From Clostridiales bacterium (GTDB lineage Bacteria; Bacillota; Clostridia; Oscillospirales; Oscillospiraceae): a DNA stretch of 64,000 bases. Below the pieces are notes generated by a model that did not search any database, was not told the DNA's origin, and saw only the letters and a program-made list of their open reading frames with translations. Position numbers and translations under genes: made by a program. Positions 9,552 through 36,405 of this stretch are shown piece after piece (the first letter of the stretch is position 1; each line of letters opens with the position of its first letter). The stretch covers positions 26,225-90,224 of the forward strand of contig JALFLH010000031.1 in assembly GCA_022774865.1 (NCBI GenBank). Direction: 5' to 3'.

Positions 9552-9560
9552 GCGTGATTG

Positions 9561-14449: not shown

Positions 14450-14519
14450 ACTCGGCTCAATATTAAATTGTTAGCCTAATTTGTCTACCAGACAGATTAG
14501 GCTAATTGCTTTTTGTAAA

Positions 14520-15255: not shown

Positions 15256-15265
15256 TGCAGGCGGA

Positions 15266-16090: not shown

Positions 16091-16229
16091 TTTCTATTCC
16101 TCCCTGTATAAATGCAAATAAGATAAACAATTTACGATCTCATTGTACCACTCTACGTACTATATGTCATTCGCCGAAGAGCTTAGCTGTTTGACGTGCG
16201 CTCCTCTTGTTGACCGATGCTTCCTATGT

Positions 16230-17935: not shown

Positions 17936-17952
17936 TTTTTCTTCCTTTCTTT

Positions 17953-20031: not shown

Positions 20032-20044
20032 CTTTTCTCTCCTC

Positions 20045-20911: not shown

Positions 20912-20982
20912 AGTTTTCCTATTCCTTTCATTTTTGCGGCGCGGGACACCGATGCGCGCACCGGCGTTCCGTGGCCATTCGG

Positions 20983-22515
20983 TCAGAAACGGTTTTCCTC
21001 GTATACGGTTTTTCCGCCCACGACGGTTTTGATAACTTTTACGCTGCGGTATTCCTCCGGATTGCAGGAGAAAAGATCGCGGTCGAGCACGATCAGATCG
21101 GCCCACTTTCCCTCCGTCAGCGTCCCCGCCTGTTCGAGCGAGCGCTGCGCGGCATACCCATTGCGGCTCCAGCAGTACAGCACCTCGCCGGGCGTCAAAG
21201 CGTTCTGCTTCTGATAGCCTCCCTCTGGTTTTCTGTCCGGGAAGCGCCGGTTGCAGGCAAACTCCAGCGACGTTCCGAGATCGGGTACGTCCAGCGGGAG
21301 ATCGGTGCCGAAGCTGAGCAGCACGCCGTCACGGATCATGTCTTTATACGGCCAGATCGTCTTCTGCCGCTTCTCGTCGAAGCGCGTCAGCCCATAGTAG
21401 CCGTCGTACTCCGGGTAGCAGTTCATGATCTGCACATAGCACACGGCCGCCGTTTTCTGTGCCGCCATGCGGCGGCGGTCCGCCGGATCGATCAGCTCAA
21501 CATCTGTGATCACGTGGTTTCCCTTGCAGGTGTCATAAATATCCAGCACGTGGCGCACAGCGGCGTCGCCTTCGGCATGCATATAGCAGCGCAGACCGCG
21601 CTTATCTGCCGCACGGACTACCGCCTCGAGCGCGGAATAATCCACCTCCGCGTTCTCTTGTCCTTCCGGCCAGGGAGGCAGAAGATCGGCCTCATAGCTT
21701 TCGGCATCGCCGTCCACCATGATGTTGAAGCCCATGAAGCGAAGCATATCGCCGGTGAACCGGCGGCGGCATGCCTCGGCAAAGTCCATATCCGCCGGCG
21801 CTTTTACCGGCTGGGAAACGAGAAAGGAGCGGTGCTTCAGCTCGCCCTGCTGCTCCATTACAGCCAATTCCTCCAGAAATCCGCTGTAATCGTCAAAGCC
21901 GATCTCCTTGATGGCGGTCACGCCCTTGGATGCGAGCAGGTTCTGAAACTCCTCATACCAGCGGCGCACCTCGGCCTTATCCTGCAAAAACTCTTCCAAA
22001 AGATGGCAGCATACCTCGGCATAGCATTCCGTGCCGTCAAACCCATAACGCCCGCGCGCCGCATCGTTCATCCAGCAGCGGCTGCGCTCGTCGTTGAACA
22101 CGCAGACCGGCCGATCGGGAAACGCCGCAGTGAGCGCGCCGGGCGCTAAGTCTTCCTCGCTCCAGTCTTCAAAGTCCGCGCCGTGGCCGCATACAGTGCC
22201 TTCCGTATGCTCCGCCGCCGCCCGGACGAGCGAGAGCATTTGCTGCGCATTTTCTGCCCCGGAAGCGTCAAAGCCCTTATGCTGCCAGATATAGCCCGTG
22301 AAAAACACATGGTTGTCCACCAAACCACAGCTCACCGTCCGGCTGCCGACATCCGTGACGAGCGTGTTTTCCCCCAGCAGCTCGCCGTACTCGTCACCGT
22401 CGCCCACCCCGACGATCTTATCCCCGCGCACGGCGACGAAGCCGTCGCGGACATCCTGCGGCGTAATGCCAGTGAAAATGGACCGGGAACGAAGGATCCA
22501 ATCGGCTCTTTCCAT
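20983..22515 (-). CDS. amidohydrolase-3 (YtcJ-like) family protein
   Basis: 510 aa. N-terminal beta-sandwich (GFVAVRGDKIVGVG), GLVDNHVFF metal-site region, C-terminal GTDLPLD and ADLIVLDRD motifs. Confidence 0.7.
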   Translation of the reverse strand: MERADWILRSRSIFTGITPQDVRDGFVAVRGDKIVGVGDGDEYGELLGENTLVTDVGSRTVSCGLVDNHVFFTGYIWQHKGFDASGAENAQQMLSLVRAAAEHTEGTVCGHGADFEDWSEEDLAPGALTAAFPDRPVCVFNDERSRCWMNDAARGRYGFDGTECYAEVCCHLLEEFLQDKAEVRRWYEEFQNLLASKGVTAIKEIGFDDYSGFLEELAVMEQQGELKHRSFLVSQPVKAPADMDFAEACRRRFTGDMLRFMGFNIMVDGDAESYEADLLPPWPEGQENAEVDYSALEAVVRAADKRGLRCYMHAEGDAAVRHVLDIYDTCKGNHVITDVELIDPADRRRMAAQKTAAVCYVQIMNCYPEYDGYYGLTRFDEKRQKTIWPYKDMIRDGVLLSFGTDLPLDVPDLGTSLEFACNRRFPDRKPEGGYQKQNALTPGEVLYCWSRNGYAAQRSLEQAGTLTEGKWADLIVLDRDLFSCNPEEYRSVKVIKTVVGGKTVYEENRF

Positions 22516-22537
22516 TGGGTATGCCCTCCTGTAAAAA

Positions 22538-23551
22538 TCAGTATTCCATCACACGGTAGTAGCGGCGGATGTCGAGCGAATGGCCGCGCTTATCCTCCAG
22601 CTGAATGCTGAGCCGGTCGAGAATGGCCGTCATAACGATGGGCGAGAGCAGATGGCGGTATTTCTCATCAATGCCGGGCAGCTCATAATCTTTCGTATCG
22701 AACACCGTGAGATGCTCCGTGATGCGCTGGGCAAAGCTCTGCACGCGCTCACACATGGCGCGACTCGCGTCCTCGCCCATGATCAGCATGACGCTCGTGT
22801 CCTTATCCACGATCTCCAGCGTGCCGTGGAAGAATTCGGCGGCGCGCACCGTTTTGGTGCGGATCCACTGCATTTCCTCCATGACGCACATGCCGTAGGA
22901 ATACGTCTCGCCCCACAGACTGCCGGAGCCGATGAGCAGATGATATGTCTCATCCTTGTACTGCTCGGCGAAGGCCTCGCAGAAGGCGTCGCTGTGCTCT
23001 TTTACCGAAACGAGCGCTTCGGGCATTCTGGCAAGATTCGCGCAGAAGTCCTCGTAATCGTCGAAATCGCCCGCGGCATGCATCAGCGCAAATGTCAGCA
23101 TATAAAGGAGCAGATAGTCTGCGTCCGACGCGGAAAAGTCGTCCATCTTATTGATGATGGCATAATCGGCGTTTTTGGCGTAGGGCACCTGGTCGTTGCC
23201 GGAAATGCAGATCGTCACAGCGCCCTTGCTGCGGCAGTACTCCGCCGCCGCCACCGTCTCCTTTGTAGTGCCGGAGGTAGAGGTGAAAATGCAGACCGAT
23301 TCCGCGCCGAGCTGGTTGTGTCCCGTCGCCATCAACTCCGCGGCGATCACGCAGTAGGTCTGAATGCGTGACTGTGTGGTGAGATAATACTCAAATGGGA
23401 TAAACATGGCGTAAGAGCCGCCGGAGCCGATGAGAAATACGTTCTTAAAGCCCTTCTTGCTCACCTCGTCCACGATCTCATCCACACGGGACTTAAGCGC
23501 GACGGTGTTTTTGCCGATTCGCAGGTAACTTTCTTCGTTGAAATTTTTCAT
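22538..23551 (-). CDS. SIS-domain fructoselysine-6-phosphate deglycase (FrlB)-like
   Basis: Two SIS domains (FLIGSGGSY, TSTSGTTKE). C-terminus RRYYRVMEY resembles FrlB's RRYYGGLVEY. Start at ATG 23551 with AAGGAGGG. Confidence 0.8.
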   Translation of the reverse strand: MKNFNEESYLRIGKNTVALKSRVDEIVDEVSKKGFKNVFLIGSGGSYAMFIPFEYYLTTQSRIQTYCVIAAELMATGHNQLGAESVCIFTSTSGTTKETVAAAEYCRSKGAVTICISGNDQVPYAKNADYAIINKMDDFSASDADYLLLYMLTFALMHAAGDFDDYEDFCANLARMPEALVSVKEHSDAFCEAFAEQYKDETYHLLIGSGSLWGETYSYGMCVMEEMQWIRTKTVRAAEFFHGTLEIVDKDTSVMLIMGEDASRAMCERVQSFAQRITEHLTVFDTKDYELPGIDEKYRHLLSPIVMTAILDRLSIQLEDKRGHSLDIRRYYRVMEY

Positions 23552-23596
23552 GGGAAACCCTCCTTGAAGTATACAAAGTATCCAATTGCGGTTTTT

Positions 23597-23625
23597 AATA
23601 TACCACCAACTTTTCAGCGTGTCAA
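23597..23625 (-). promoter_or_regulatory. sigma-A-type promoter of the frl-like operon
   Basis: On the minus strand: TTGACA (23625-23620), 17 nt, TATATT (23602-23597). The spacer/-10 contains TGGTATAT, half of the GGTATACC operator motif. Confidence 0.6.
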
Positions 23626-23722
23626 GCCTGCAAGTACACAAAAATTCTCCGGAAGAAATGTGCATATTATACAGAGGCGGTGTGTTTGTTCGCCGCGAGC
23701 AGCAGCGAAAGAATAGTTTTTA

Positions 23723-23750
23723 TTGCAAAGGAAAAAAAATTGTGTATAAT
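23723..23750 (+). promoter_or_regulatory. sigma-A-type promoter of the GntR-GntR-HAD operon
   Basis: TTGCAA (23723-23728), 16 nt, TATAAT (23745-23750). Overlaps the imperfect palindrome ATTGTGTATAATAGTACATAAT. Confidence 0.5.
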
Positions 23751-23816
23751 AGTACATAATAAAAAATTGGCACAGGTCAGTCTTTCTCGCCGGATGAGTC
23801 GGCAACGCAGGAAACC

Positions 23817-24581
23817 GTGCAGATGGAGGCACATGTGGGAAAACACATTCTCGTGCGAAGCGAAGAGCTTCGGGAGCGGATTGAAGAATACATCGATAAA
23901 AGTGGCCTCAAGCCGGGCGACAAGCTGCCCTCTGAGCGCGCCTTTGCGGAAGCGCTTGGCACAAGCCGCGTTACGCTACGCGACGCGCTGATGCGCATGC
24001 AGGACGAGGGTCTGATTGAGACGCGGCACGGCAAGGGCAGCTTCATTGCGCCGCCCAAATTCGAGGAGGATGCGCGCAGCTTTCTCTCCTGCACCTCCGG
24101 CTGGGAGGCCGACGGCTTCAAAGTATCGAGTGAGGTGCTGAGCTTTCTGGAAAAGGAAGCGGGCGCCAAGGCCGCCCGGATGCTGAACATCCCCATCGGT
24201 GAGTCAGTGTTCGAGCTCAAGCGGGTGCGCCGTCTTGACGGTGTTCCGGTGTTCATTGAAACATCGAACATCCCCTCCTGCCGCGTACCGGGGCTGAAGA
24301 AATACGATTTTTCCAGTTGCTCTCTGTACACGGTCCTGGAAAAGGATTACGGCATCGTCCTCACCCAGCAGATGCAGACGTTCTCCATCACGCATCTTTC
24401 CGAGAAGGAAGCACGCTGGCTGGGCGTGGATCAGGACACGCCGGCGTTTTATATCTGCGGCACGACCTTTGATGCCGCCGGAACGCCCACGGAGTTCACC
24501 GTCAGCATCAACCGTGCCGACCGCTACAACGTTTCCGCATGGCTTACCCGCCAGACACCTGCCATGGACAGTGAGGGATAA
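23817..24581 (+). CDS. GntR/HutC-family regulator (wHTH + UTRA)
   Basis: LPSERAFAEALGTSRVTLRDALMRMQDEGLIETRHGKGSF, then a UTRA-like C-terminal domain. Confidence 0.85.
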   Translation: MQMEAHVGKHILVRSEELRERIEEYIDKSGLKPGDKLPSERAFAEALGTSRVTLRDALMRMQDEGLIETRHGKGSFIAPPKFEEDARSFLSCTSGWEADGFKVSSEVLSFLEKEAGAKAARMLNIPIGESVFELKRVRRLDGVPVFIETSNIPSCRVPGLKKYDFSSCSLYTVLEKDYGIVLTQQMQTFSITHLSEKEARWLGVDQDTPAFYICGTTFDAAGTPTEFTVSINRADRYNVSAWLTRQTPAMDSEG

Positions 24582-24584
24582 CGC

Positions 24585-25292
24585 ATGATATCTCAGCCAA
24601 TTTACGTACAGATCGCCGATACGATCCGCCGTAAGGTAGAGCTCGGCGTATACGCCTACGGTTCCCGTCTACCAACGGAGCGGGAGTTTTCCGAAAACTT
24701 CGGTGTAAACCGCATCACCGTCCGCAAGGCGCTGAAGCTGCTCGTGGATGAAGGGTTGCTCATCAGCAGTCAGGGTCGCGGTACCTTTGTTTCCCAGCCA
24801 AAGATCAGCTCGGGCATGGATACGATTCAGGGCACATCCAGCTTCCTCACCGACATGGGCTTTACGCCGAGCTCCAAAATGCTGCACACGCTGCGCCGCA
24901 AGGCAGGATATTACTTTGCGAAAAAGCTGGGCATTCCGGAAGAGGACGACGTTTACCAGATCATCCGTCTGCGGCAGGGCGACGGCGATCCGCTTTCTCT
25001 GGAATACACCACCATCCCGTTCTCGCTGATCCCCAACATCGAAAACTACGACTTTTCGGTCTTCTCCCTCTCCGAGCTGTACGAACGCAACGGAATCACG
25101 CTCTGCAAGGTAAAGCAGGTGCTGTCCATCGTCAAGCTGCATGAGCCGCAGGTCACATTTCTGCGATGCAAGGAGGGAGACTACGGCTTCATCTCCGAAG
25201 AGGTCGTCTTCGGAGACGCCGGCCGGCCGATCGAGTTTTCCAAATCCTACTACAGCGGACGCAAATTCAATTTCACATCGGTTATGGAGTGA
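24585..25292 (+). CDS. second GntR/HutC-family regulator (wHTH + UTRA)
   Basis: LPTEREFSENFGVNRITVRKALKLLVDEGLLISSQGRGTFV plus a UTRA-like C-terminus. Starts 3 nt after the first regulator. Confidence 0.88.
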   Translation: MISQPIYVQIADTIRRKVELGVYAYGSRLPTEREFSENFGVNRITVRKALKLLVDEGLLISSQGRGTFVSQPKISSGMDTIQGTSSFLTDMGFTPSSKMLHTLRRKAGYYFAKKLGIPEEDDVYQIIRLRQGDGDPLSLEYTTIPFSLIPNIENYDFSVFSLSELYERNGITLCKVKQVLSIVKLHEPQVTFLRCKEGDYGFISEEVVFGDAGRPIEFSKSYYSGRKFNFTSVME

Positions 25293-25960
25293 TGGTTTTG
25301 AGCAAAACGGCGCCGCGCGGCGTTCTGTTTGATATGGACGGCGTGATTATCGACAGCGAAAGCTACAACTATGTGCTGGACCGGGACGCCTTTTCTCTGC
25401 AGGGATTCACTCTGGATTGGGATACGTTCCGCCATGTCATCGGAACGAACGAGGCCTTCATCCGGAGCTTTTACGAATCTCGTTACGGCAAGGCGTTTGA
25501 CTTTGACCGGCTTCGTCGTGACACCGACCGACTGTTCTTCGACTATATAGAGAAAAACGGCGTCTCACCCAAGCCCGGCGCCCTCGCCGCGCTTCGCTGG
25601 CTGAAGGATCAGGGCTACAAGCTCTGTCTCGCCACCTCCAACGACTACGGAGACGCCCGATTTCTCATGGAGCGGATCGGCGTGTGGGAGCTGTTTGACG
25701 TTGTCGTCACCGGCGACCGGGTCGGTCCAAGCAAACCCGCCCCGGACATTTATCTCGCCGCTGCCGCGGCGCTCGGTCTCGCTCCGGAGGAATGTCTTGC
25801 CGTGGAGGACAGCTATGCCGGGGTGAAAAGCGCGGCAGCTGCGCGTTGCCAGACCGTGATGGTACCCGATCTCCTGCCGCCGACGGACGAGATGCATGCG
25901 CTTGCCGACGCGATCATACCCAGTTTGGAAGCTCTTCCGGCTTATGTCTCTGCGCTGTAA
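25292..25960 (+). CDS. HAD-IA family phosphatase (beta-phosphoglucomutase-like)
   Basis: DMDGVIIDSE (motif I), LATSN (II), EDSYAGVKSAAAA (IV). Its ATG overlaps the upstream TGA by 1 nt. Confidence 0.85.
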   Translation: MVLSKTAPRGVLFDMDGVIIDSESYNYVLDRDAFSLQGFTLDWDTFRHVIGTNEAFIRSFYESRYGKAFDFDRLRRDTDRLFFDYIEKNGVSPKPGALAALRWLKDQGYKLCLATSNDYGDARFLMERIGVWELFDVVVTGDRVGPSKPAPDIYLAAAAALGLAPEECLAVEDSYAGVKSAAAARCQTVMVPDLLPPTDEMHALADAIIPSLEALPAYVSAL

Positions 25961-25982
25961 TTTTCCCAATAACCGTCCTTCC

Positions 25983-26018
25983 GGGCGTGCTGCCAACGAT
26001 CGCAGCACGCCCTTTTTT
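25983..26018 (+). terminator. rho-independent terminator
   Basis: GGGCGTGCTGC / GCAGCACGCCC stem followed by TTTTTT. Confidence 0.8.
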
Positions 26019-26204
26019 GCTCCGTAAATTTCTCAAATGCAGGTGGTATGAAAGATTCCGCTTCGTGGTATGGAAAAGTCCTATTGTTTCCCTACCCACT
26101 CACATTCGGAAATAGGCCCTGATTTTCACCGCATTTCTCGCAATTTATTCTATTTTCTCCGGTGAAACAACCAAATGTTTTTTCTCCTGTCCACCGTTCC
26201 CGCA

Positions 26205-26220
26205 AAACTGGTATACCTCG
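26205..26220. promoter_or_regulatory. candidate HutC/GntR operator copy 1 (AAAACTGGTATACCTCG)
   Basis: Contains the palindrome GGTATACC (26210-26217). 15/17 identical to copy 2. Confidence 0.45.
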
Positions 26221-26283
26221 CGCGCTCCATTTATTGTACATTTTAGACAAAATTCGTTGGGTTTTTTATGTGTTATCGCAATA

Positions 26284-26312
26284 TTGACACGGCATTTTTT
26301 AAGAGGTATGAT
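26284..26312 (+). promoter_or_regulatory. sigma-A promoter of the transporter/FGGY-kinase operon
   Basis: TTGACA (26284-26289), 17 nt, TATGAT (26307-26312). About 140-nt leader before the GTG start. Confidence 0.65.
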
Positions 26313-26319
26313 GATGGTG

Positions 26320-26336
26320 AAATTGGTATACCTTGA
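26320..26336. promoter_or_regulatory. candidate HutC/GntR operator copy 2 (GAAATTGGTATACCTTG)
   Basis: Palindrome GGTATACC (26325-26332) lies 12 nt downstream of the -10 hexamer, a position suited to repression. Confidence 0.45.
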
Positions 26337-26459
26337 CGAGATGTGACAGTATTTCCTTTCCACCGCCGGAGCCTTCGTCCAAACGGACTTCCGGCCCTCT
26401 CGCAGGGGAACCACAAAATGGAGACTGAGGGAGTCTCAGAAAAATAAGGAGGATTACAC

Positions 26460-28004
26460 GTGGAAACATTAAAGGAATTCTTTACCCCCAAGCGAATCAT
26501 AGCTTATGGGCTGATGATTCTCGCGTTCGTGGCCGTTGCGCTGTTTGCTCCGCACGAGCAGGTTGGCATTGGAGAGTATCAAGAGCTGATCGAGCTTAAC
26601 GACGGTGCTCTTCCGGAGGAGCTTTCGACCTTTTACGGTGCATGGACACTTGCCATACCCGCGCTGATGTTCGTATTTTGTATTCTGACGCACGGCTTCC
26701 TTGAAGCATTTATTTGGTCCACTGCACTCGTCACATTCATGCGCTTTCGTCTGGATTTTCTGCCCGCCATGGTCGAAACCCAGCTCGGCGCGATGATGGA
26801 CTATGACAACATCCGCATGATCGTTCTCTACCTGCTGATCGGCAGCGTTCTCGCCGCTATATCGAAGGGCGGCGGTGCAAGGGCTTTTGCTGAGATTGTC
26901 AGAAAAAAAGCCAAAAGCTCCAAGCTGGCGCTTGTCATCATGTGGATCATGGATGTCTTCCTGTCCATTGACGACGAGCTGTCCGCATTCACCACTGGCA
27001 CCGCCATCACCCCGCTCAACGACGGCTACGGTATTCCCCGTGAGAAATCTGCTGTCATGATTCGTCTGACCGCCGTTGCCCCGGCCAACCTCTGGCAGCT
27101 TGGCGCGTGGGTTGTGTTTGTCGCGGTTCTTCTGGAGCAGTCCGGCTTTGCCGCGTCGGGTCAGGGCGTCGTGGAATACATGAAGTGCGTTCCCTTCATG
27201 TTCTTCCCAATCATTGCCCTCATTCTCGCTCTTCTGTATGCACTCGGCATCGTACCCGACATCGGCCCGGTCAAGCGTGCTGTGAAGCGCGTCAAGGAAG
27301 GCGGTCCCATCGCCCCTGTTGCCTCCGACGGTTCTACCAAGAATGATGCTTCCGTCAGCAGCACGGAGATTTTTACCCATGTGAAGCCGCGCCTTATCAA
27401 TTTCATTCTTCCCGTTGTTGTCTTGGTTGGTGTCTCCTTCCTCTATGACTTTGATATCATGGTCGGCATCATTGCCTGTCTGGTTTTCACATTTATTCTC
27501 TTCGTCGCGCAGGGCGTCTGCACCCCGACCGAGTTCATCGAAGACGTATTTCTTGGCGGTATGCACGATATGCTGATGCTGACCGCGCTCTTTGCCATTG
27601 GCGTCAACTTCTGTACCCAGCTTGGCGAGATGGGCTTTGCTGAGTATATCATCAGCATCACCGCAAGCTTCCTCTCTCCCAAGATGTTCCCGTTCATCGT
27701 TTTTGTGGTGTTCTCCATCACAGAGTTCCTGTGCAGCTTCAACTGGACGCTTTACATGATGGCTCTGCCGATCATCGTCCCGATGTGCGGCATCATCGGC
27801 GCCAATCCCTACATCGCTGTTGCGGCTCTCATCTGCGCGGGCGTTTGGGGTTCCATGGGCTGCATGTACTCCGACGGCGCTCTCGTCGCCGCCGCCGCTA
27901 CCGACTGCGACGCGTATGAGGCGTCTTCCGCCGCTCTGCCCTATATGTTGATCTGCGAGGTCTTGAGCGCTATACTGTTCCTCGTCGCAGGCTTCATCTT
28001 CTGA
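26460..28004 (+). CDS. NhaC-family (Na+/H+ antiporter-like) membrane transporter
   Basis: Polytopic, 514 aa. The segment SIDDELSAFTTGTAITPLNDGYGIPREKSAVMIRLTAVAP resembles the conserved NhaC-family loop. GTG start 7 nt after AAGGAGG. Confidence 0.65.
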   Translation: METLKEFFTPKRIIAYGLMILAFVAVALFAPHEQVGIGEYQELIELNDGALPEELSTFYGAWTLAIPALMFVFCILTHGFLEAFIWSTALVTFMRFRLDFLPAMVETQLGAMMDYDNIRMIVLYLLIGSVLAAISKGGGARAFAEIVRKKAKSSKLALVIMWIMDVFLSIDDELSAFTTGTAITPLNDGYGIPREKSAVMIRLTAVAPANLWQLGAWVVFVAVLLEQSGFAASGQGVVEYMKCVPFMFFPIIALILALLYALGIVPDIGPVKRAVKRVKEGGPIAPVASDGSTKNDASVSSTEIFTHVKPRLINFILPVVVLVGVSFLYDFDIMVGIIACLVFTFILFVAQGVCTPTEFIEDVFLGGMHDMLMLTALFAIGVNFCTQLGEMGFAEYIISITASFLSPKMFPFIVFVVFSITEFLCSFNWTLYMMALPIIVPMCGIIGANPYIAVAALICAGVWGSMGCMYSDGALVAAAATDCDAYEASSAALPYMLICEVLSAILFLVAGFIF

Positions 28005-28107
28005 CCCACTATCAAAACCAACATGGCGGCGGTAAGTCTCTACTTGCCGCCGCCGTATTCTACACCGCCGGGCCGATCCCGGCGAGCCGATTGCGCAAGG
28101 AGGGCAT

Positions 28108-29625
28108 ATGGCAAAGTATTTTATGGGGATTGATGTCGGAACATACGAGAGCAAGGGCGTCATTATCAACGACAAGGCAGAAGTCGTCTGCTCCGCAGCC
28201 ACGCCGCACGGGCTGGAAAACCCCAAGCCGCATTACTTCGAGCACGACGCTGATACCGTCTGGTGGGGCGATATCTGCAAACTGACTAAGACGCTGTTGG
28301 AAACGTCCGGTCTCGCCAATACCGAGATCGCTGCTTTTGGATGCAGCACGCTTGCCGCCGACGTGCTGCCGGTCGATGAAAACTGCACGCCGCTGCGCAA
28401 AGGCATTCTGTACGGTATTGACTCCCGCGCCACAGAAGAGATCAAATATCTGGAAGAATACTACGGTGACCGTCTCGACGAGCTCTGGGGCGGCGAGGAA
28501 CTGTGTTCCTCCGACTGCATGCCCAAGGTGCTCTGGATCAAAAACAACGAGCCGGAAGTCTACGAGAAGACTTATAAATTCCTTACGGCTTCCTCCTACA
28601 TCACCGCCAAGCTCACCGGAAAATACGTCATCGACCGCTACCTCGCCGTTTCGTCCTTCATTCCCTGCTATCGTCCCGACCTCAGCATCGACGACAAGCT
28701 CGCACGTGAATGCTACTGCCGCGGCGATCAGCTGGCCGAGGGTCATGAGGTCACCGATGTTGTCGGCTACGTCACTGCCGAGGCCGCACGGGAGACTGGG
28801 CTCGCCGAAGGAACGCCGGTCATTACCGGTACCGACGATTCCGGCGCAGAGGCCATCAGTGCCGGGGTGTTGCAGCCCGGCGATCTGATGGTGCAGCTCG
28901 GCTCCACCTGCTATATTATTTACTGTTCCGATCAGCTCATCCACGACGACCGCATTTGGGAAGAGGACTCCCTGATCCCAGGCCGCTACAGCATCGACGG
29001 CGGCACGAACGCCGCCGGCGCGCTAACGAAGTGGATGCGTGACACCTTCTTTCCCGACCTTGTCCGGGAACAGGAAGCTGGCGGAGAAAACGCCTTCACC
29101 GCGCTCACAAAGCTCGCTGCCAACGTTCCGGCCGGTGCGGGCGGGCTGGTAGTTTTGCCGTACTTCTCCGGCGAGCGCACCCCGATCAACGACAGCGAAG
29201 CCAAGGGTATCATCTTCGGACTTCAGTTCCACCACACGCGCGATCAGATCTACCGCGCCGGGCTGGAGGGCGTCGCCTGCTCGGTAGCACAGCACATCGA
29301 CATTCTCGAAGAACACGGGCTGAAGATCAATAATCTCATGTGCACCGGCGGCGGCACGCGCAACCCGGTCTGGCTGCAGATCATTGCTGACATGACCGGT
29401 CACGAGGTCAAAACGCCGGAGGTGACGCTCGGCGCATCTTACGGTGACGCGCTCATGGCGGGCATTGGCGTTGGCTGCTTCCAAGGCTTCCCCGATCTGT
29501 CGCGGTATATCCGCGTCGGCAACGTGTACCGTCCCGACCCCGAAAAGGCCGGACTGTACGCCAAAATCAAGGATATCTACGGCAAGCTCTACGAAGCAAA
29601 CAAGGATCTCATGCACGAGCTGTAA
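28108..29625 (+). CDS. FGGY-family carbohydrate kinase (xylulokinase-like)
   Basis: MGIDVGTYESKGV N-terminus, GTDDSGAEAISAGV and GGGTRNPVWLQIIADM motifs, RBS AAGGAGG. Confidence 0.88.
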   Translation: MAKYFMGIDVGTYESKGVIINDKAEVVCSAATPHGLENPKPHYFEHDADTVWWGDICKLTKTLLETSGLANTEIAAFGCSTLAADVLPVDENCTPLRKGILYGIDSRATEEIKYLEEYYGDRLDELWGGEELCSSDCMPKVLWIKNNEPEVYEKTYKFLTASSYITAKLTGKYVIDRYLAVSSFIPCYRPDLSIDDKLARECYCRGDQLAEGHEVTDVVGYVTAEAARETGLAEGTPVITGTDDSGAEAISAGVLQPGDLMVQLGSTCYIIYCSDQLIHDDRIWEEDSLIPGRYSIDGGTNAAGALTKWMRDTFFPDLVREQEAGGENAFTALTKLAANVPAGAGGLVVLPYFSGERTPINDSEAKGIIFGLQFHHTRDQIYRAGLEGVACSVAQHIDILEEHGLKINNLMCTGGGTRNPVWLQIIADMTGHEVKTPEVTLGASYGDALMAGIGVGCFQGFPDLSRYIRVGNVYRPDPEKAGLYAKIKDIYGKLYEANKDLMHEL

Positions 29626-29714
29626 AAAAGCCCTTATTCACAGATGCAATACCGCCCTGGCAGGAATCCTGCCGGGGCGGTTGAGCATGTCAAAAAGGAT
29701 CTTTGACACGATCA

Positions 29715-29752
29715 CGCTGTGCGAACTTTCGTTTGCACAGCGTTTTCTTTTC
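29715..29752 (+). terminator. rho-independent terminator
   Basis: CGCTGTGCGAAC / GTTTGCACAGCG stem followed by TTTTCTTTTCT. Confidence 0.7.
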
Positions 29753-29759
29753 TATCGGT

Positions 29760-30146
29760 TTACCGGCAGACGAGCTCGTCGTTTTCGACGTCCACCGTGA
29801 GCGTGCTGCCCGCGGCGAGATCGCCGGAGAGAATGGCTCTTGCCAGCAGCGTTTCCACGCTGCTCTGGAGATACCAGCGCAGCGGACGCGCGCCGTAGAG
29901 CGGATCGTAGCCACGCTCGATGATAAGCTCCTTCGCCTTGTCGGTGATGCAGAGCTTGAGTGAGCGGTCGGCCAGGCGCTTCTTGAGCCCTTCGACCATG
30001 ATGTCGATGATGCCGGTGAAGTTGTCTTTCGTGAGCGGCTTGAAGAGGATCATCTCATCGAGACGGTTCAGAAACTCCGGGCGGAACGCGCGGTGCAGCT
30101 CGCCCATGACGGCGCTCTTCGCCGAATCGGTGATATTACCCTCCAT
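29760..30146 (-). pseudogene. clpB: 3' fragment of a clpB/clpA-type AAA+ chaperone gene (D2-small domain only)
   Basis: FRPEFLNRLDEMILFKPL and YDPLYGARPLRWYLQSSVE are the ClpB C-terminal signatures. The roughly 700 N-terminal residues are absent. The frame is open only to 30224, with no ClpB similarity upstream of about 30150. Confidence 0.8.
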
Positions 30147-30286
30147 ATCATCGAAGCTGGGCGGGTGCTGCTCGATGTGTGTTTTCAGGGTGTCAAAGAA
30201 TTGTTTTATAATATCACCGTCCTTTTAAGGTTTGGGTACAGGGAGGATGATTCCAATTAAGATTGCGTGTACAGGATTCTTCCGGT

Positions 30287-31114
30287 TCATTTCTGTTTCA
30301 ACTCCAAGGAGTATCTCAGAACATGACTCAGAAGTTTCCTCGGTGGAACGCCAAACTTTTCTGCCAGTCGGATTAGTTCCTCATCAATCTGATCCAGGTT
30401 ATCTTCCTCACATTGTAAAACAATCTCTTGGTTGGCAGTCCAGCCGACTGTAAGGCCGTCAGGAACCGCACCCAGTTTTTCAAACAGTCGTTGACTTGCC
30501 AAGTTTCGAGGTTCAATTCTGACACAAAAAACATGTACCCCCAAACGCGTCTGGATCTCCTTTAACATTGCAGATACCGCACGGTAACCGATTCCTCTCC
30601 TGGTCCACTCAGGCCGCAATTCGATGCCAATTTCCCATGGCTCCTGCAATAGATTGTTAATCCCACAGTAGCCGATATAGCTTCCGTCAGAATGAATCGA
30701 CAGAGTCAATCGTTTGCTTGCAATATGTTCTTCCCAGAGCATATTGCAGTAAGTCGGTTCCTTCAGCATATGTTTTGTGACCAGATATGCTCTTTTAATC
30801 TCCAGATAGCCTTCACGGTCAGATTCCTGCACCCGTCTCATGGTAATTCTATTCCCAGCAGATATCACATTGCCCGCTCCCCAGAATTTCTGGTTAAGAA
30901 TCTGACAACGCTGTTCCTCGCCGGCAATATCTGCAAGTGCATCTGCATGGGAATCCTCTGTGCAATTTCGTAGGTAATCGGTAAGTTCTTTCTTCTTTTC
31001 CTCGAACGGCTTGCCGTCATTAGCTTCCAATAATTCCAGTACATCCCTAAGAATTGCCTCGCGTATATACTTCTCAGCGTTTTGCGTAACAGTTTTCTTC
31101 TCTGTCTGTTCCAT
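30287..31114 (-). CDS. GNAT-family N-acetyltransferase with an extra N-terminal domain
   Basis: Acetyl-CoA loop RRGIGYRAVSAML and RimJ/L-like core. Start at ATG 31114 after GGAGGAGAAAAGG. Region is visibly more AT-rich than its surroundings. Confidence 0.75.
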   Translation of the reverse strand: MEQTEKKTVTQNAEKYIREAILRDVLELLEANDGKPFEEKKKELTDYLRNCTEDSHADALADIAGEEQRCQILNQKFWGAGNVISAGNRITMRRVQESDREGYLEIKRAYLVTKHMLKEPTYCNMLWEEHIASKRLTLSIHSDGSYIGYCGINNLLQEPWEIGIELRPEWTRRGIGYRAVSAMLKEIQTRLGVHVFCVRIEPRNLASQRLFEKLGAVPDGLTVGWTANQEIVLQCEEDNLDQIDEELIRLAEKFGVPPRKLLSHVLRYSLELKQK

Positions 31115-31396
31115 CCTTTTCTCCTCCGTAATAATCGTTTTCCTACCCTCATTGTAATCCATCCGGCAGCCGATAGCAATACACAAAGAAATAACCCTCT
31201 ACCTCTTGCCCACTCACTGCAACCGTAGAAGGTTATTCCTTTTGGGTGGTGGGTACCATGTCCATCATTGATGCTAGCGGCTTATCCCTCCTTCATTCAG
31301 GGATGGTGCTACATTCGCAGCGCCATCCCTCACCATCCTGTTCTTTTGTTTATAATTCGTTCATTTGACAAACCATCCTCCCATTGATATAATAAA

Positions 31397-31410
31397 CAAA
31401 CATATGTTTC
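31397..31410. promoter_or_regulatory. LexA (Cheo)-box-like palindrome CAAACATATGTTTC upstream of tnpV
   Basis: The 12-bp perfect palindrome AAACATATGTTT matches CGAACATATGTTCG at 11/14 positions. Lies between TTGATA and TATATT promoter-like hexamers. Confidence 0.3.
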
Positions 31411-31468
31411 TATATTATATCAGGTAAGCAAAACATAAAATCAAATTCGCCACAAAGGAGGAATGGCA

Positions 31469-31819
31469 ATGAAACCCAAGCTGACCTATATCCGAAGCGG
31501 AGACTACTGGATACCCGATCTCAAACTGAAAAGCACCGAACAGCATCCCCTGAATAAGTATGGGCGGATGCGCCGGACCTTCCTGCGGGAGCACAGACCC
31601 ATGCAATACAGCCTTTTGACGATGCAGCAGAAGCTGTTTCCCCATTTGTGGGAGGTTCAGGAAGCCGCTGAGCGCCGATTGGAGCAGATCATGGACGGAT
31701 TGTTGAAACAGAATCCGGGTCCGGACAAAGCAGATGACCAGCTTGGATGGGTACAGCATAGGAACTGCCTGAAAGCTCAGGCGGAAGAAATCATCTTTTC
31801 AGAGCTGATTTTTGCATGA
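31469..31819 (+). CDS. tnpV: TnpV-family transposon protein
   Basis: KLTYIRSGDYWIPDL...YGRMRRTFLREHRPMQYSLL...EEIIFSELIF fits the TnpV family pattern (Tn4451-type elements). GGAGG lies 7 nt before ATG 31469; an alternative ATG is at 31463. Confidence 0.8.
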   Translation: MKPKLTYIRSGDYWIPDLKLKSTEQHPLNKYGRMRRTFLREHRPMQYSLLTMQQKLFPHLWEVQEAAERRLEQIMDGLLKQNPGPDKADDQLGWVQHRNCLKAQAEEIIFSELIFA

Positions 31820-33223
31820 AAAAGCGGCGGGGGTGTAGTGAAACGGTGCTGTTGACAAATACCCCGAAAAAGCAGAATAACCTTTGAAAATAGCCCCCAA
31901 ACAATGGAAAAAGACCGCATTTGCGGCCTTTACCAGTCGTATTAAGTTCATAGCGCAGGCAGACAAGAGGCATTGTTCGGTTACTCGTTCAATGCCTCGT
32001 TTGTATGTCCGCCTTAAATTGTGCTCTGCTTTCTGGTGGGAGAAATTGCCCTCGCACCAGATCTTCCGCAGCCTCAGCGCAGCAAAGTATTCCGGCGTAT
32101 TCCGGTTCTTCGCCTGTTCCTGTCTGGCTTCTTCATGCAACAGCCGCTCCACCATGCGGCTGTTTTTGGAGCTGCCTACGCATTGCTGCCGACAGGGACA
32201 GTTGTTGCAGTCTTGCCGTGTTGCCTGATATCGTTTCTTATGCCCGTTCTTGTTGTAGCAGGAGTATGCCAGTGTTTTCCCTTGTGGACAGATATAGGCA
32301 TCTTCTTGCGGATCGTAGATGAATGCTTCCGGCTCGAAGCCTTCCGTGTAGGACGGCGCATTGTTCGGCTTCCTCTTTTTGGGGATATATGTCCGAATCC
32401 CACGCTTTAACATAGCATCGTAGACCTCGCTGTTGTCGTAACCGGCATCCGCGCAGACGGCTTCTGTTTCAAAGCCAAACTTGTCAATCTGTGTTTCCAA
32501 GCGACTGGCATGGGGCGTGCAGTCGTTTACATTCCCCGGCGTAACGAAAACATCCGTGATAATGCCCGATTCGGCATCACTGGTCTGGTGATTCAGATAG
32601 CAGAAAGCATTGGGTTTTCCGGGACGATTCATCAGCCCGGACTCCGGATCGGTGGTGCTTTTAGTAACTGTTTTCGTCTTTTCAGGATAGGTGACAGGTT
32701 CATCCAGCAGCCCTGCTTCCAGAGCTTCTCTGTCCAGCTTCTTCACATACTCAGAAGGCGTATCCGGAACCTCGATGACTTCCCGCTTTTCCTTTGCGGC
32801 ATTTGCCAGAATATGTGTGGAATCCGTCAGCAGAAGCTTTCCGGTTACCAGCCCTGCCGCCATACACTTGCGGACGACCTCGTCAAAAATATCCTGAAAC
32901 AGGGTTGTACCTCCGAATTTTCGGTGGCGAAGCTGGGAAATGGTAGAGTGATCCGGAACAGGCTCGTCAAAGTCAATGCCCAGAAACCAGCGGAACGCGA
33001 TATTGACCCGAACCTCCTGCTCCAGCTTCCGCTCGGATGGAATGCCGTAAAGGTATCCCAGAAGGAGCATTTTCACCAGAAGCACAGGATCGATGGAAGG
33101 CCGGCCGACTCTGGCATACAGCGGTTCAACGATATCGTAGATGAAGCTGAAATCTACACTCCGCTCCAGATCGCGAAGAAAATGCTTTTCCGGCATCAGT
33201 TCCTCCAGCGTCAGAAAAGTCAT
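31799..33223 (-). CDS. IS1182-family DDE transposase
   Basis: N-terminal GRPSIDPVLLVKMLLLGYLYGIPSERKLE, the DDE region (LTDSTH, ADAGYD) and a Cys-rich insert. Start at ATG 33223 (MTFLTLEEL). The ORF runs through the left IR and stops in flanking DNA. Confidence 0.88.
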   Translation of the reverse strand: MTFLTLEELMPEKHFLRDLERSVDFSFIYDIVEPLYARVGRPSIDPVLLVKMLLLGYLYGIPSERKLEQEVRVNIAFRWFLGIDFDEPVPDHSTISQLRHRKFGGTTLFQDIFDEVVRKCMAAGLVTGKLLLTDSTHILANAAKEKREVIEVPDTPSEYVKKLDREALEAGLLDEPVTYPEKTKTVTKSTTDPESGLMNRPGKPNAFCYLNHQTSDAESGIITDVFVTPGNVNDCTPHASRLETQIDKFGFETEAVCADAGYDNSEVYDAMLKRGIRTYIPKKRKPNNAPSYTEGFEPEAFIYDPQEDAYICPQGKTLAYSCYNKNGHKKRYQATRQDCNNCPCRQQCVGSSKNSRMVERLLHEEARQEQAKNRNTPEYFAALRLRKIWCEGNFSHQKAEHNLRRTYKRGIERVTEQCLLSACAMNLIRLVKAANAVFFHCLGAIFKGYSAFSGYLSTAPFHYTPAAFSCKNQL

Positions 33224-33341
33224 TTTCAACTGCTTGCCGCCATCTCGCTTCAGCATACACTTCAACCCCGTTTTTCTTTTATTGTACCATAATTCCGGTG
33301 AAAAATCGAGATTTCAGAGTTTGTCAACAGCACCGAAACAC
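31838..33341 (-). mobile_element. IS1182-family (IS5-like DDE) insertion sequence, about 1.5 kb
   Basis: Perfect 16-bp terminal inverted repeats CGGTGCTGTTGACAAA (31844-31859) and TTTGTCAACAGCACCG (33320-33335) enclose the transposase gene. Confidence 0.8.
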
Positions 33342-33591
33342 GACATCCCCACCTATGAAAGGTGATGAAACAATAACCATCTGATATCATACAGGAACCC
33401 ACAATTTTATATCCCGAATTGAATATTGAACGAGCTTTGAAGCCGCAGCACCCGGCATATCCGGTAAACGAATCCATTGAAATGGGCGAGTAAATTCACA
33501 AAAGCAAGACGATTGTGAGGCTGCGAAATGGAACACCAGAGAATAATCACAGAAGTATTGGAAAATACTGTAAGAAAGGAGATGACCTGAG

Positions 33592-33855
33592 ATGCGGATT
33601 CACATGGACGAAGAAAAGAAGATCGCGGAGATCTGGCTGACCAAAGCGGAAAGCGATGACCCGGCAGTGGATGCCAGATTGAAACCCTTCTACAAGGAAT
33701 GTAAGGATCACAAGTATCTGGCGGTAGTGTACCGCTCCGGCAGGGAAGACCTTCTGGAAACCACCAAAGATCTGCTCCGGCACAACTTGAGCAGCTATGT
33801 GCATCCGCAGCCGGTTAGAAAACCAAGAACAAGAAGTTATGACATGGGGCACTGA
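33592..33855 (+). CDS. small conserved-looking hypothetical protein directly upstream of the recombinase
   Basis: 87 aa, RBS AAAGGAG. Same strand as the recombinase and 88 nt upstream of it. No family recognised. Confidence 0.5.
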   Translation: MRIHMDEEKKIAEIWLTKAESDDPAVDARLKPFYKECKDHKYLAVVYRSGREDLLETTKDLLRHNLSSYVHPQPVRKPRTRSYDMGH

Positions 33856-33879: not shown

Positions 33880-33908
33880 TTGCATTTTCCGAAATCACGA
33901 TATACAAT
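33880..33908 (+). promoter_or_regulatory. candidate promoter of the recombinase gene
   Basis: TTGCAT (33880-33885), 17 nt, TACAAT (33903-33908). The -10 region TATACAAT also resembles the mother-cell sigma-E -10 element CATACAnT. Confidence 0.5.
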
Positions 33909-33943
33909 GTTATTATATATACACAGCAAGGAAGTGAACAACA

Positions 33944-36100
33944 TTGGAAGTATTTGGTTACACAAGAATCTCCGTTGACCTGGATGAGGACAGCCGGGAG
34001 AATACCAGTATCGAAAACCAGAAGAAAATCATTACGGATTTCGTGGCGTCCACCTTCCCGGATGCCCACCTGACGCTGTTTGAGGACCGGGACCGTTCCG
34101 GCTACACCTTCTCCCAGCGAGAGAGCTACCAGAAAATGCGGGATCGAATGATGTCTGGGGAGTGCACCATTCTGGTGGTCAAGGACTTCTCCCGGTTTTC
34201 CAGAAGAAACAGCTTGGGACTGCTGGAGCTGGAAACCCTGCGGGATGCGGGGATCCGGATTATTTCCATCGGTGACGGCATTGACTATCCCACCAAGGAC
34301 GACTGGATGTTGATTCAGTTCAAGTTTCTGATGAATGAGATGCCGGTTACGGACACCTCCCGAAAGATCAAGCAGATCATCCAGAGCCGCCAGAAGGACG
34401 GCAAATGGGTCTGCGCCGTTCCCTATGGCTACCGGATCATCAACACCAAGGCCATGACCTATGAGATTGACCCGCCCGCCGCGGAGGTGGTGCGGGAAAT
34501 CTTCCGGCTGTACAACAACGGCTGGGGCTACAAGAAGATTGCCAATTACCTGACGGACAACGGCGTTCCCACCCCCCGGGCCAACGAAATTTCCCAGAAG
34601 GAAGCTGCCGGAATCCCCACCAAAATCCGCAGCAGCACCGTTTGGAATACCGCCACGCTCTGCGGCTTGCTGGCAAATGACTTCTACATCGGCACCCTGC
34701 GGCAGAAGAAGTATGTCCGCAAGGGAATCAACGGAAAAGACCAGAAGGTGGGGGACGAGGAGCATATTGTCATCGAAAACGCCCACACCCCCATCATTGA
34801 CCCCCGCACCTTTGCCTATACTCAGGAGCAGATGAAGCTGCGCACCAAAAGCAACTACCGGGGCGAGAAGAAGTATGCTACGGACTACTCCGGCTTCCTG
34901 TTCTGTGGGGACTGCGGAAGTCCCATGTTCTCCCTGTCCCGGCCGGATATCCCTGCCGCCTATACCTGCGGCACTTACCACCGCAGAGGACTGAAGGGCT
35001 GCACCTCCCACCACATCCGGGTGGATACCCTGGACGATCTGCTGAAACGCTATCTCCGGCAGGTTCGGGACAATTCTTCTGCCATGCTGGAGGAGCTGGA
35101 AACCGCCATCCGGGAGCAGCCCCAGCGGGAGGAGGAGATCGGCAAAACCATCGACTCCGTTCAGGTTCAGCTGGTGCAGGCCAAGGAGCAGCTCAAGAAT
35201 ACCCTGAAGCGCAAGCTGTTGGACACCATGGGGAAGGCGCCGGAAACTGCCGCCATCATTGAGGAAACCTACACGGAAATTGAAGACGAGTTGACCCAGC
35301 GGATTGCCGGTCTGGAAAAGCAGATTGATGCCGGGAATACCCTGCGGAACAATATGCTCAAGGTTAACCGGTCTGCGAAAACCGTCATCGATGTGTTTGA
35401 CGACATTCTCAGCAAGCCCACCCTGGACAAACGGGATATTTCCTTCTTGGTAGAGCGCATCAGTGTGTATACCGACCATCTGGATGTGAAGCTGAAGCCG
35501 GACATTGATACCCTGCTGAATCTGACCCCCGATCATGAGGACTCCATAAATTTTTCGACGGACAGTAAGGATATCGCATCCATAACCATCGTCCAGAGGT
35601 CCACGCACCAGAAGGACAAGGTCTTTACTGTCAATGTTGTTAACGAGGGCGACCCGCTGGAAATTTATACGGAAAAGGACGGGGGCGTCATTTTCCGCAA
35701 GTATTCCCCGATGGGGGATTTGCAGGAATTCGCTGCACAGATGTGCGAATCCATCGGCACGGCCACCGGCCGGATTGCCGCGATATCGGATCGGGATACC
35801 ATCATCGCGCTGGCGGGCGCACCCAAGCGGGAGCTGGTGGATAAGCCCAATTCGCAGGCGCTGGACAAGCTGATGGAGCAGCGCAAGAATTACCGCTATC
35901 AGGACGGGGACACGCCCATCCGCGCATCCGACACTACGGAAAAGTATCATCTGGGCGTGGCGGCACCCATTCTCAGTCAGGGTGATCTGATGGGGTGCGT
36001 CATGCTGCTGCTGCAGGAGAATGACAAGCCGCTGGCCGAATCCGACCAGTATCTGGCGCAGACGGCCGCCGGCTTCCTGGGCAGGCAGATGGAGAACTGA
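33944..36100 (+). CDS. large serine recombinase (568 codons) fused in frame, across attR, to the 3' 150 codons of spoVT
   Basis: Resolvase catalytic domain (GYTRISVD, VVKDFSRFSRR), recombinase domain, Cys zinc ribbon (CGDCGSPM...CGTYHRRGLKGC) and a coiled coil. No stop codon before the junction at 35648. TTG start at 33944. Confidence 0.9.
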   Translation: MEVFGYTRISVDLDEDSRENTSIENQKKIITDFVASTFPDAHLTLFEDRDRSGYTFSQRESYQKMRDRMMSGECTILVVKDFSRFSRRNSLGLLELETLRDAGIRIISIGDGIDYPTKDDWMLIQFKFLMNEMPVTDTSRKIKQIIQSRQKDGKWVCAVPYGYRIINTKAMTYEIDPPAAEVVREIFRLYNNGWGYKKIANYLTDNGVPTPRANEISQKEAAGIPTKIRSSTVWNTATLCGLLANDFYIGTLRQKKYVRKGINGKDQKVGDEEHIVIENAHTPIIDPRTFAYTQEQMKLRTKSNYRGEKKYATDYSGFLFCGDCGSPMFSLSRPDIPAAYTCGTYHRRGLKGCTSHHIRVDTLDDLLKRYLRQVRDNSSAMLEELETAIREQPQREEEIGKTIDSVQVQLVQAKEQLKNTLKRKLLDTMGKAPETAAIIEETYTEIEDELTQRIAGLEKQIDAGNTLRNNMLKVNRSAKTVIDVFDDILSKPTLDKRDISFLVERISVYTDHLDVKLKPDIDTLLNLTPDHEDSINFSTDSKDIASITIVQRSTHQKDKVFTVNVVNEGDPLEIYTEKDGGVIFRKYSPMGDLQEFAAQMCESIGTATGRIAAISDRDTIIALAGAPKRELVDKPNSQALDKLMEQRKNYRYQDGDTPIRASDTTEKYHLGVAAPILSQGDLMGCVMLLLQENDKPLAESDQYLAQTAAGFLGRQMEN
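35629..35656 (+). repeat. attR: inverted-repeat arm TGTCAATGTTGTTAACGAG (35629-35647) plus core GGCGACCCG (35648-35656)
   Basis: Exact repeat of the 10901-10909 core. The arm is complementary (16/18) to 10910-10927. Confidence 0.85.
35657..36100 (+). pseudogene. spoVT: spoVT 3' segment (codons 34-180, rest of the AbrB fold plus the GAF-like domain)
   Basis: LEIYTEKDGGVIFRKYSPMGDLQEF...TAAGFLGRQMEN is colinear with SpoVT residues about 34 to the end. No independent start or RBS. Confidence 0.9.
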
Positions 36101-36153: not shown

Positions 36154-36405
36154 TTATCTGGCGTATTTCTCCCGGTATTCCGTGGGTTCCCGCCCGATGT
36201 ACTATTTGAATACCTGAGAAAAGTGGCTTAACGTAGCGGAAGCAAGATAGGAGCCAATTGTTGTGAATGACTTGTCGCAATAGCGGAGGAGGCGTCCTGC
36301 CTCTTCCGTTTTTCTTTCGGAACAGAACCGTTCATATTTCGCCCGCTTTCTCTTTAAATTTTGCAGACTGTATTTTCCCAATGACTTGCAAATCAGATCC
36401 GGCGT
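36154..36405 (-). pseudogene. AraC-family HTH remnant with an in-frame stop
   Basis: Minus-strand reading gives ...LKRKRAKYERFCSERKTEEAGRLLRYCDKSFTTIGSYLASATLSHFSQVFK*YIGREPTEYREKYAR*. This is the typical AraC C-terminus, interrupted by TAG, with no N-terminal domain. Confidence 0.45.

Follow-up and report, generated by a model that had tools for sequence, protein, structure and literature searches.

A 64,000-nucleotide stretch of a Clostridiales bacterium genome (Oscillospiraceae; assembly GCA_022774865.1, contig JALFLH010000031.1, positions 26,225 to 90,224; hereafter the window) contains an integrated island whose large serine recombinase (LSR) gene is divided by the island's own attachment site, attP. 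The recombinase open reading frame (ORF) runs through the attR junction into the 3' part of the sporulation gene spoVT, and the native 3' end of the recombinase gene lies at the opposite end of the island, behind the 5' part of spoVT. The resulting 718-amino-acid (aa) ORF is an LSR joined in frame with the SpoVT C-terminal domain (SpoVT_C). From sequence comparison, the read-through and the accompanying swap of C-terminal tails are a conserved, selected gene design. We consider it moderately probable that this is an LSR island split by its own attP, in which the element-encoded tail is native and functional, SpoVT_C is a passenger and excision would need a small companion ORF.

The chimeric recombinase ORF

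The ORF lies at 33944..36100 (+), begins with TTG and encodes 718 aa in the ORF listing. An earlier note on this DNA had divided it into 568 recombinase codons before a short core, Gly-Asp-Pro (GDP) and 147 spoVT codons, and both the ORF listing and Pfam bear out this composition. Pfam places Resolvase at residues 3-155, Recombinase (PF07508) at 179-299, Zn_ribbon_recom (PF13408) at 316-372 and SpoVT_C at 592-717 (E=6e-39). Residues Y6, R8 and S10 of the resolvase catalytic domain, the serine being the nucleophile, are invariant in the 40-47 homologues compared, and the zinc-ribbon cysteines C321, C324, C342 and C353 are invariant among homologues. The nearest solved structure to the recombinase is that of SPbeta SprA (9DXH, E=4e-21).

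The recombinase-derived part comprises 571 codons including the core (33944..35656, +), with folded domains to about codon 525 and a low-confidence extension over codons 528-571. The spoVT 3' fragment follows at 35657..36100 (+); it encodes the second hairpin of an AbrB-like domain and the GAF-like SpoVT_C, and forms the in-frame end of the chimera. A terminator-like hairpin recognised in the sequence lies downstream of spoVT (36282..36310, +). The possibility that a sequencing error had affected a stop before 35648 finds no support, as the same chimera is present in independent assemblies, including a protein cluster that is 98% identical to the window chimera and has 469 member sequences (P0001), and loci L008-L012. 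An internal in-frame start for a stand-alone SpoVT_C was considered and discarded, there being no ATG, GTG or TTG from about 35560 to the core.

Precise insertion in spoVT

The other half of the target gene begins with ATG at 10811, 24.7 kb upstream of the recombinase. From there the frame reads MKATGIVRRVDDLGRIVIPKEIRRTLRIREGDP (33 SpoVT residues) and then LLTSLTRWEIFSFAMLDLSKRNRWDGTY, the 28-aa element-encoded tail that the earlier note had described, and it stops at 10994-10996. Codons 1-33 (10811..10909, +) encode the first half of the AbrB-like DNA-binding domain (MazE_antitoxin/AbrB match, E=2.6e-8). A candidate spoVT promoter (GCATA, 17 nt, AACAATA; 10749..10777, +), recognised by eye, is forespore sigma-G/F-like and provides an in-organism reference for promoters of forespore type. 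In Bacillus subtilis and Clostridioides difficile, spoVT is a forespore gene.

Both junctions have a 9-bp core, GGCGACCCG, in common. At attL, where it was placed by sequence and empty-site alignment, the core occupies 10901..10909 (+; central GA 10904-10905), and in attR it occupies 35648-35656 (central GA 35651-35652). The attR site (35630..35656, +) lies inside the ORF and includes the attP left arm GTCAATGTTGTTAAC (35630-35644). At the left end of the element (10910..10996, +) stand the attP right arm GTTAACATCATTGAC (10912-10926) and the 28-codon tail with its stop, in which the recombinase gene natively ends. In the rebuilt attP the arms, GTCAATGtTGTTAAC and GTCAATGaTGTTAAC, are imperfectly inverted about the core's G|A; 18 of 25 positions are symmetric and the central dinucleotide is non-palindromic, as expected for a serine integrase site. 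The core corresponds to codons 569-571 of the 599-codon recombinase gene and, on the host side, the insertion site is spoVT codons 31-33 (Gly-Asp-Pro), in the most conserved stretch of spoVT.

The joined host halves yield a SpoVT of 180 aa whose alignment with B. subtilis SpoVT (2W1T, E=6e-45) covers the whole protein, and exactly this rebuilt protein is found on 107 contigs in 186 sample blocks. An empty-site contig (L198) aligns at 99% to window positions 4812-10909 and 35645-38728, and because it matches both flanks at this level the insert is 24,738 bp. The insertion is precise, and excision would restore an intact spoVT ORF.

Copies in the attP configuration

In the excised state the recombinase ORF is predicted to cross attP and end with the tail, giving 571 + 28 = 599 aa, in agreement with the length of about 599 aa proposed in the earlier note. 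A recombinase of this form is encoded on 102 contigs in 177 sample blocks (P0018, 596 aa); it ends in ...GDPSQITLALWQRFSFAMLDLAKRQGWN / ...VNVINSGDPSQITLALWQRFSFAMLDLAKRQGWN, the same kind of tail. In its loci (L001-L007) further element genes, and not spoVT, lie behind the recombinase gene, and in L001 a hairpin equivalent to that at window 11041-11068 comes after the tail. Integrated copies of the P0018 lineage also occur (P0021, P0023, P0031, P0038). The attP arms co-vary between lineages, both P0018 arms having changed together relative to those of the window.

Conservation of the read-through

Proteins of 711-729 aa that bear SpoVT_C account for 110 of the 120 best homologue clusters (68-98% identity). 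Among species-representative genomes, 61 of 66 loci read through at an identical GDP|LEI(Y/F)T junction, with LSR identity down to 48%. These 61 loci are from Oscillospirales, including Faecousia, Pseudoflavonifractor, Howiella and Acutalibacteraceae, and both spoVT halves are intact in all of them. Cultured carriers include Pseudoflavonifractor phocaeensis An858 (L014) and an Intestinimonas butyriciproducens strain with P0049. IMG/VR holds eight related loci; the five that reach far enough have the same junction. The earlier note had asked whether homologues stop before the core and whether they also place attP within the recombinase 3' end. No stop upstream of the core was found among the homologue clusters and genome loci compared, and all of the homologous elements place attP there. 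The SpoVT_C parts differ between hosts, and therefore the same family occupies the same codon in many species. Taken across genomes, the comparison shows a split-gene layout that is ancestral and present in at least 60 Oscillospirales species. No attL or second spoVT was found near the recombinase gene within up to 10 kb of flank in 70 genome loci.

Family members also occur in the other orientation and at other targets. A sub-lineage with TC instead of GA at the core centre inserts at the same spoVT codon in the opposite orientation, and its recombinases (P0070, P0082, P0092; 638-673 aa long) read into antisense spoVT 5' sequence. At secondary targets, the recombinase runs in frame into a GspE/PilB-like ATPase gene (L032, ~1780-2300), is in frame with a gene of no known identity (L021, ~3980-4250) or ends out of frame beside an AraC-like regulator gene (L015, ~2080-2500), and a further type represents an out-of-frame insertion in another gene without known identity (L101 type, ~6000-6200). 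The L032 and L021 targets have GGCGA.....GGAAAT in common with the spoVT site. Selection for in-frame fusion at secondary targets was considered and set aside, L032 and L021 being in frame and L015 and the L101 type not.

Two clusters of 716-721-aa junction ORFs (P0049, P0271) carry the NCBI name 'stage V sporulation T C-terminal domain-containing protein' or 'stage V sporulation protein T'. Proteins of 711-733 aa labelled as SpoVT-type are really recombinase/spoVT junction ORFs, and the label hides both the recombinase and the split gene.

The element-encoded tail

The tail is 24-28 codons long in the family. In the 120 best clusters of SpoVT N-terminal part plus tail (SpoVT-N+tail), all but one (P0141) follow the consensus [LS][QL]T.LT.W[EQ].F[SC]FAM.DL[SA]KR..W, in which invariant residues are interspersed with hypervariable ones. 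The C-termini are -GTY, -GW, -GWK or -DCT, and not -AA. Four-fold sites in the tail are near saturation (1.87-1.94 bits) over 87 distinct sequences, and entropy by codon position is 0.48/0.27/0.85, a test that is partly circular, as the fetch pattern fixed positions 1 and 2 and only the third-position result is independent. The seven att-arm codons lack this periodicity (0.46/0.47/0.42). The tail is also retained in lineages at ~70% LSR identity. Codon comparison shows the tail to be under selection at the protein level.

These data bear on a suggestion of the earlier note, that the C-terminal swap could equally be accidental. On such an account attP would simply overlap the 3' end of the gene, and neither tail nor fusion would have a function. 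It would accommodate the position of the crossover in a poorly conserved, low-confidence extension beyond all folded domains, the many different integrated-state tails that are tolerated, and the mixture of in-frame and out-of-frame insertions at secondary targets; the in-frame spoVT fusion is itself a single ancestral event that had a 1-in-3 chance. However, tail amino acids are conserved while synonymous sites are saturated, the tail persists where LSR identity has dropped to ~70% and where the insertion is reversed, and the gene unit is completed by a probable terminator hairpin behind the tail. We therefore regard a neutral origin of the whole arrangement as distinctly unlikely, and for the tail the notion of accident is contradicted by the protein-level selection.

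A selected tail could instead serve the reciprocal product, the protein of about 60 aa formed by SpoVT(1-33) and the tail, for example by neutralising or destabilising the truncated DNA-binding fragment that the spoVT promoter would express. There are at least 115 clusters of 57-63-aa SpoVT-N+tail ORFs with a conserved stop, the tail frame is the spoVT frame, and a terminator-like hairpin stands behind the tail, all of which fit this idea. Against it, the tail is conserved at opposite-orientation junctions (L137, L144, L146, L195), where it lies behind antisense spoVT 3' sequence, lacks a start codon and has its frame closed by a stop six codons before it, and it is likewise retained in the out-of-frame L101-type insertions in another gene. 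Nor do the tail and the recombinase extension together give an AbrB-like signal: as candidates for mimicry of an AbrB-like half-domain, by which the swap would leave both domains complete, they were rejected, BLASTP aligning only EGDPL, Pfam finding nothing beyond genuine spoVT residues and AlphaFold2 giving a predicted local distance difference test (pLDDT) score of ~30. Selection on the reciprocal product thus seems most improbable.

Because the only frame common to all cases is that of the recombinase crossing attP, the tail is taken to be the native C-terminus of the recombinase. We infer that it is a working part of the free-state enzyme, acting via activity, stability or partner binding. 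No conserved gene was found at the left end of the element, the tail alone being conserved there. A GC-rich hairpin of 11 pairs with T runs on both strands (11041..11068) is a likely bidirectional terminator, placed after the tail and after the Fic gene.

Structure of the fusion and possible control of direction

AlphaFold2 models the recombinase parts of the 718-aa chimera confidently to about residue 525, including two long helices (379-428 and 433-490; pLDDT 80-91) that form the embedded coiled-coil (~378-490). Residues 528-584 (pLDDT ~30) form a low-confidence linker of ~57 residues, and beyond it SpoVT_C is independently folded (pLDDT 84-92). The predicted structure of P0018 is of low confidence from residue 527 to its end. 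The crossover thus lies ~45 codons past the last folded domain, in the poorly conserved, flexible extension, and both forms of the enzyme keep every folded domain, the coiled-coil included. The fusion to SpoVT_C through a flexible linker is most probably a by-product that is tolerated, with SpoVT_C a probable passenger; the fusion looks incidental because other orientations and other targets give other C-terminal tails.

The earlier note had held that this C-terminal region helps to control directionality in LSRs, and that the swap might act as a built-in state sensor. The coiled-coil, the part of LSRs known to govern direction, is upstream of the crossover and identical in the two forms. Published work that still favours the idea shows the extreme C-terminus of phiC31 integrase in contact with its directionality factor. 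On the sensor account, the tailed form made by the circle would only integrate, and the tail-less form bearing SpoVT_C would be either excision-competent or locked, the C-terminus being placed where directionality factors bind. The architecture does force the two reactions onto different protein forms, and protein-level selection on the tail would be in keeping with such a role. There is also an engineered precedent. Fusions of integrases to their directionality factors, phiC31 Int-gp3 and SPbeta Int-SprB, are active with their direction changed (PMC5737554, PMC11722253, 10.1101/2025.05.02.651858), and in C-terminal fusions made via a flexible linker direction is reversed (PMC5737554). The chimera has such a linker and likewise carries a folded domain on the recombinase C-terminus, with ~57 linking residues compared with 32 in the engineered proteins. 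The engineered fusions are artificial, however, and their added domain is the cognate factor, whereas SpoVT_C has no known affinity for recombinases and is absent in the opposite-orientation relatives.

Other features argue against a sensor of this kind. Besides the shared coiled-coil, members in the opposite orientation and at other targets have unrelated tails, which means that SpoVT_C is not a requirement; a distinct ORF is a conserved candidate for the directionality factor, as described below; and disorder is predicted for the tail. That the tail swap itself controls direction is a hypothesis that we hold to be unlikely.

Companion ORF and regulatory features

A conserved ORF of 87 aa (33592..33855, +) lies immediately before the recombinase gene and, from its conservation and position, is a candidate recombination directionality factor. 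Of 39 loci, 29 have a companion ORF of 70-90 aa adjoining the recombinase gene, lineages at ~55% identity among them. The 87-aa ORF has no family match in Pfam, PHROGs or a protein search.

A promoter candidate for this ORF, recognised in the sequence (GAATA, 18 nt, AATACTG; 33541..33570, +), is sigma-G/F-like and not of sigma-E/K type, and it resembles the spoVT promoter candidate of the window (GCATA, 17 nt, AACAATA). The general pattern upstream of the companion ORFs is GAAT(A/G), 17-18 nt and an AA.AAT(A)-like -10 element, at a conserved spacing of ~50 nt before the ATG. Over 13 lineages the sigma-G consensus has a summed score of 120 compared with 107.2 +/- 2.3 in shuffles and sigma-A is not enriched, though the sigma-E consensus is also above shuffles and the upstream sequences scored are related to each other.

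The promoter of the recombinase gene is of housekeeping type (TTGCAT, 17 nt, TACAAT; 33880..33908, +), with TTGACT or TTGACA in other lineages. An att-like inverted pair, CAATGTTATTA ... GAACAACATTG (33905..33946), overlaps its -10 box, the ribosome-binding site and the TTG start, and is conserved across lineages. The pair spans 42 bp between outer edges, compared with 40 bp in attP, and has the motif CAATGTTRTTA. Only four matches to this motif occur in the 64-kb window, the two att arms and the promoter pair, which suggests that the recombinase represses its own gene; positions 33905-33946 are a likely pseudo-att operator for autoregulation.

Proposed mechanism

In the mechanism that we propose, the LSR has inserted the 24.7-kb non-phage island into spoVT codons 31-33. 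Its gene carries attP in its own frame, with the last 24-28 codons and a likely terminator beyond attP. Integration splits the gene, so that the ORF loses its native tail and gains 147 spoVT codons, and the tail lands behind the first 33 spoVT codons. In the attP configuration, as expected for a free circle, the ORF ends with the tail at 596-599 aa. Since a free element encodes only the tailed form, that form would perform integration; since an integrated element encodes only the tail-less chimera, the chimera would perform excision, unless another copy acts in trans. Excision would probably need the 87-aa ORF, by analogy with SPbeta, skin and gin, and the forespore-type promoter of this ORF suggests a rebuilding of spoVT that is coupled to sporulation. 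Such coupling is plausible but unproven.

Several observations weigh against this mechanism. The P0018 contigs reach 87 kb, so that copies in attP form need not be simple excised circles, and an exact look-up found the 599-aa form of the window element to be absent from the sequence collection. The sole attP-form copy of the window's own lineage (L202, 3790-5560) is a pseudogene, with TAA at codon 2 and a 1-nt core deletion that puts the tail out of frame; eight contigs, the longest reaching 80 kb, carry it. For the tail there is neither a predicted structure nor a known motif, and the codon test and the promoter scores have the limits given above. Finally, spoVT is a forespore gene, and an element excised in that compartment would be lost from the spore chromosome if it did not re-integrate.

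The last point is shared by another account, in which the island inactivates spoVT as a dead-end insertion with no developmental excision, and empty sites reflect strain polymorphism. Occupied and empty spoVT alleles are both common in metagenomes, and the window copy has acquired two insertion sequences. Furthermore, every sporulation intervening element described so far lies in a mother-cell gene and leaves the chromosome in the mother cell alone. A dead end would sit poorly, however, with spoVT halves that are intact in all 61 species-level loci, a recombinase in which no catalytic or zinc-binding residue has been lost, the existence in the same lineages of copies in attP form, and a conserved companion ORF with a forespore-like promoter. 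We think a dead-end insertion possible, though doubtful.

The split-gene mechanism could be extended to a full forespore cycle, in which a forespore sigma factor would induce the 87-aa factor, the tail-less chimera would excise the island and so restore spoVT within the developing spore, the circle would be trapped in the spore and the tailed form, made whole by the return of attP to its gene, would re-integrate it at germination. This scheme is very unlikely as it stands. If true, the pair of protein forms would by itself record the state of the element and help to set direction, and no earlier intervening element would be known from a germline (forespore) gene.

Relation to known systems

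The nearest counterparts in overall form are the LSR-bearing intervening elements of sporulation genes: skin with SpoIVCA in sigK, SPbeta with SprA/SprB in spsM, the C. difficile skin element, and gin with GirC/GirX in gerE (PMC4191935, PMC5499854, PMC5025042, PMC5595907). As in these, a sporulation gene is divided at a short core by an element that brings its own recombinase, the core being 9 bp both here and in gin; the recombinase promoter is of housekeeping type; and a small accessory ORF adjoins the recombinase gene, the position of the 87-aa ORF matching those of SprB, CD1234 and GirX. Gin also illustrates that an element of 25-29 kb may be non-phage. The window element differs in its target, which is a forespore regulator and not a mother-cell gene, in having attP inside the recombinase ORF so that integration swaps the C-terminus, and in its hosts, which are gut Oscillospirales and not Bacilli or Clostridioides. 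Excision of the known elements is developmentally regulated and limited to the mother cell, which leaves the element in the spore; if excision of the present one is developmental too, it would not fit the mother-cell rule.

A recombination site within the recombinase's own gene, which is partitioned on integration, is known from the SSV-type 'suicidal' tyrosine integrases of archaeal viruses and plasmids, an arrangement said to be exclusive to archaea (PMC8371274). There the enzyme is a tyrosine recombinase and the split breaks it; here it is a serine recombinase in which only the last 24-28 residues are exchanged and the folded domains stay on one piece.

The closest functional analogy is the integration-dependent immunity of mycobacteriophages BPs and Brujita, where attP lies inside the repressor gene and gives functional, state-specific C-termini (Broussard 2013; PMC4557955, PMC8092301). 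In both cases attP is in a gene and the free and integrated C-termini differ. In those phages, however, the split gene is that of the repressor and the integrase is a tyrosine recombinase, whereas here the recombinase gene is split; and there the protein becomes shorter on integration and loses an ssrA-like -AA tag, whereas the tails here are not -AA. The tail swap may also be set beside TnpX of Tn4451/Tn4453, whose gene has a promoter that forms only on the circular intermediate. In both, the state of the element changes the output of an LSR gene, at the 5' end and in transcription for TnpX, at the 3' end and in protein sequence here.

In the limited library of literature searched, we found no report in which spoVT is connected to either a serine recombinase or an intervening element, and none of a bacterial LSR with attP inside its own ORF. 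The family is a natural and widespread bacterial case of a recombinase gene split by its own site, a layout that a review assigned to archaeal tyrosine integrases only. As integration and excision would necessarily fall to different protein forms, the family could give a handle on direction control and compact att/recombinase tools. The presence of a mobile element in the forespore regulator spoVT of dozens of gut Oscillospirales species also raises the question of whether, and where, the gene is rebuilt.

Cargo of the island

The cargo of the window island (11125..33265) comprises genes for a Fic protein, an MFS_2 transporter, an IS200-like transposase (14647-15117), BtpA, two xylose-isomerase-like TIM barrels, UPF0047, amidohydrolases, two PfkB kinases, SIS, two GntR/UTRA regulators, HAD, an FGGY kinase, GNAT and an IS1182-like transposase. 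The last of these is a 488-aa ORF (31799-33265) that was identified by eye, with no profile scan. No phage genes were found in the cargo. By its gene content this is a predicted metabolic island with a sugar/amino-sugar catabolic gene set, itself invaded by two insertion sequences. Some relatives carry a MobV-like relaxase, as judged by eye from the ORF sequence, and others have defence-type genes (AAA_14, a ResIII helicase and an N6/N4 methyltransferase). From these predicted functions, the best description of the family is a set of integrative islands, some of them mobilisable, whose cargo varies.

Within the window cargo, the MFS_2 ORF (11981-13228, 415 aa) overlaps an ORF of 313 aa with no Pfam match (12834-13775), both on the - strand, and the two may represent a frameshifted or fused gene.

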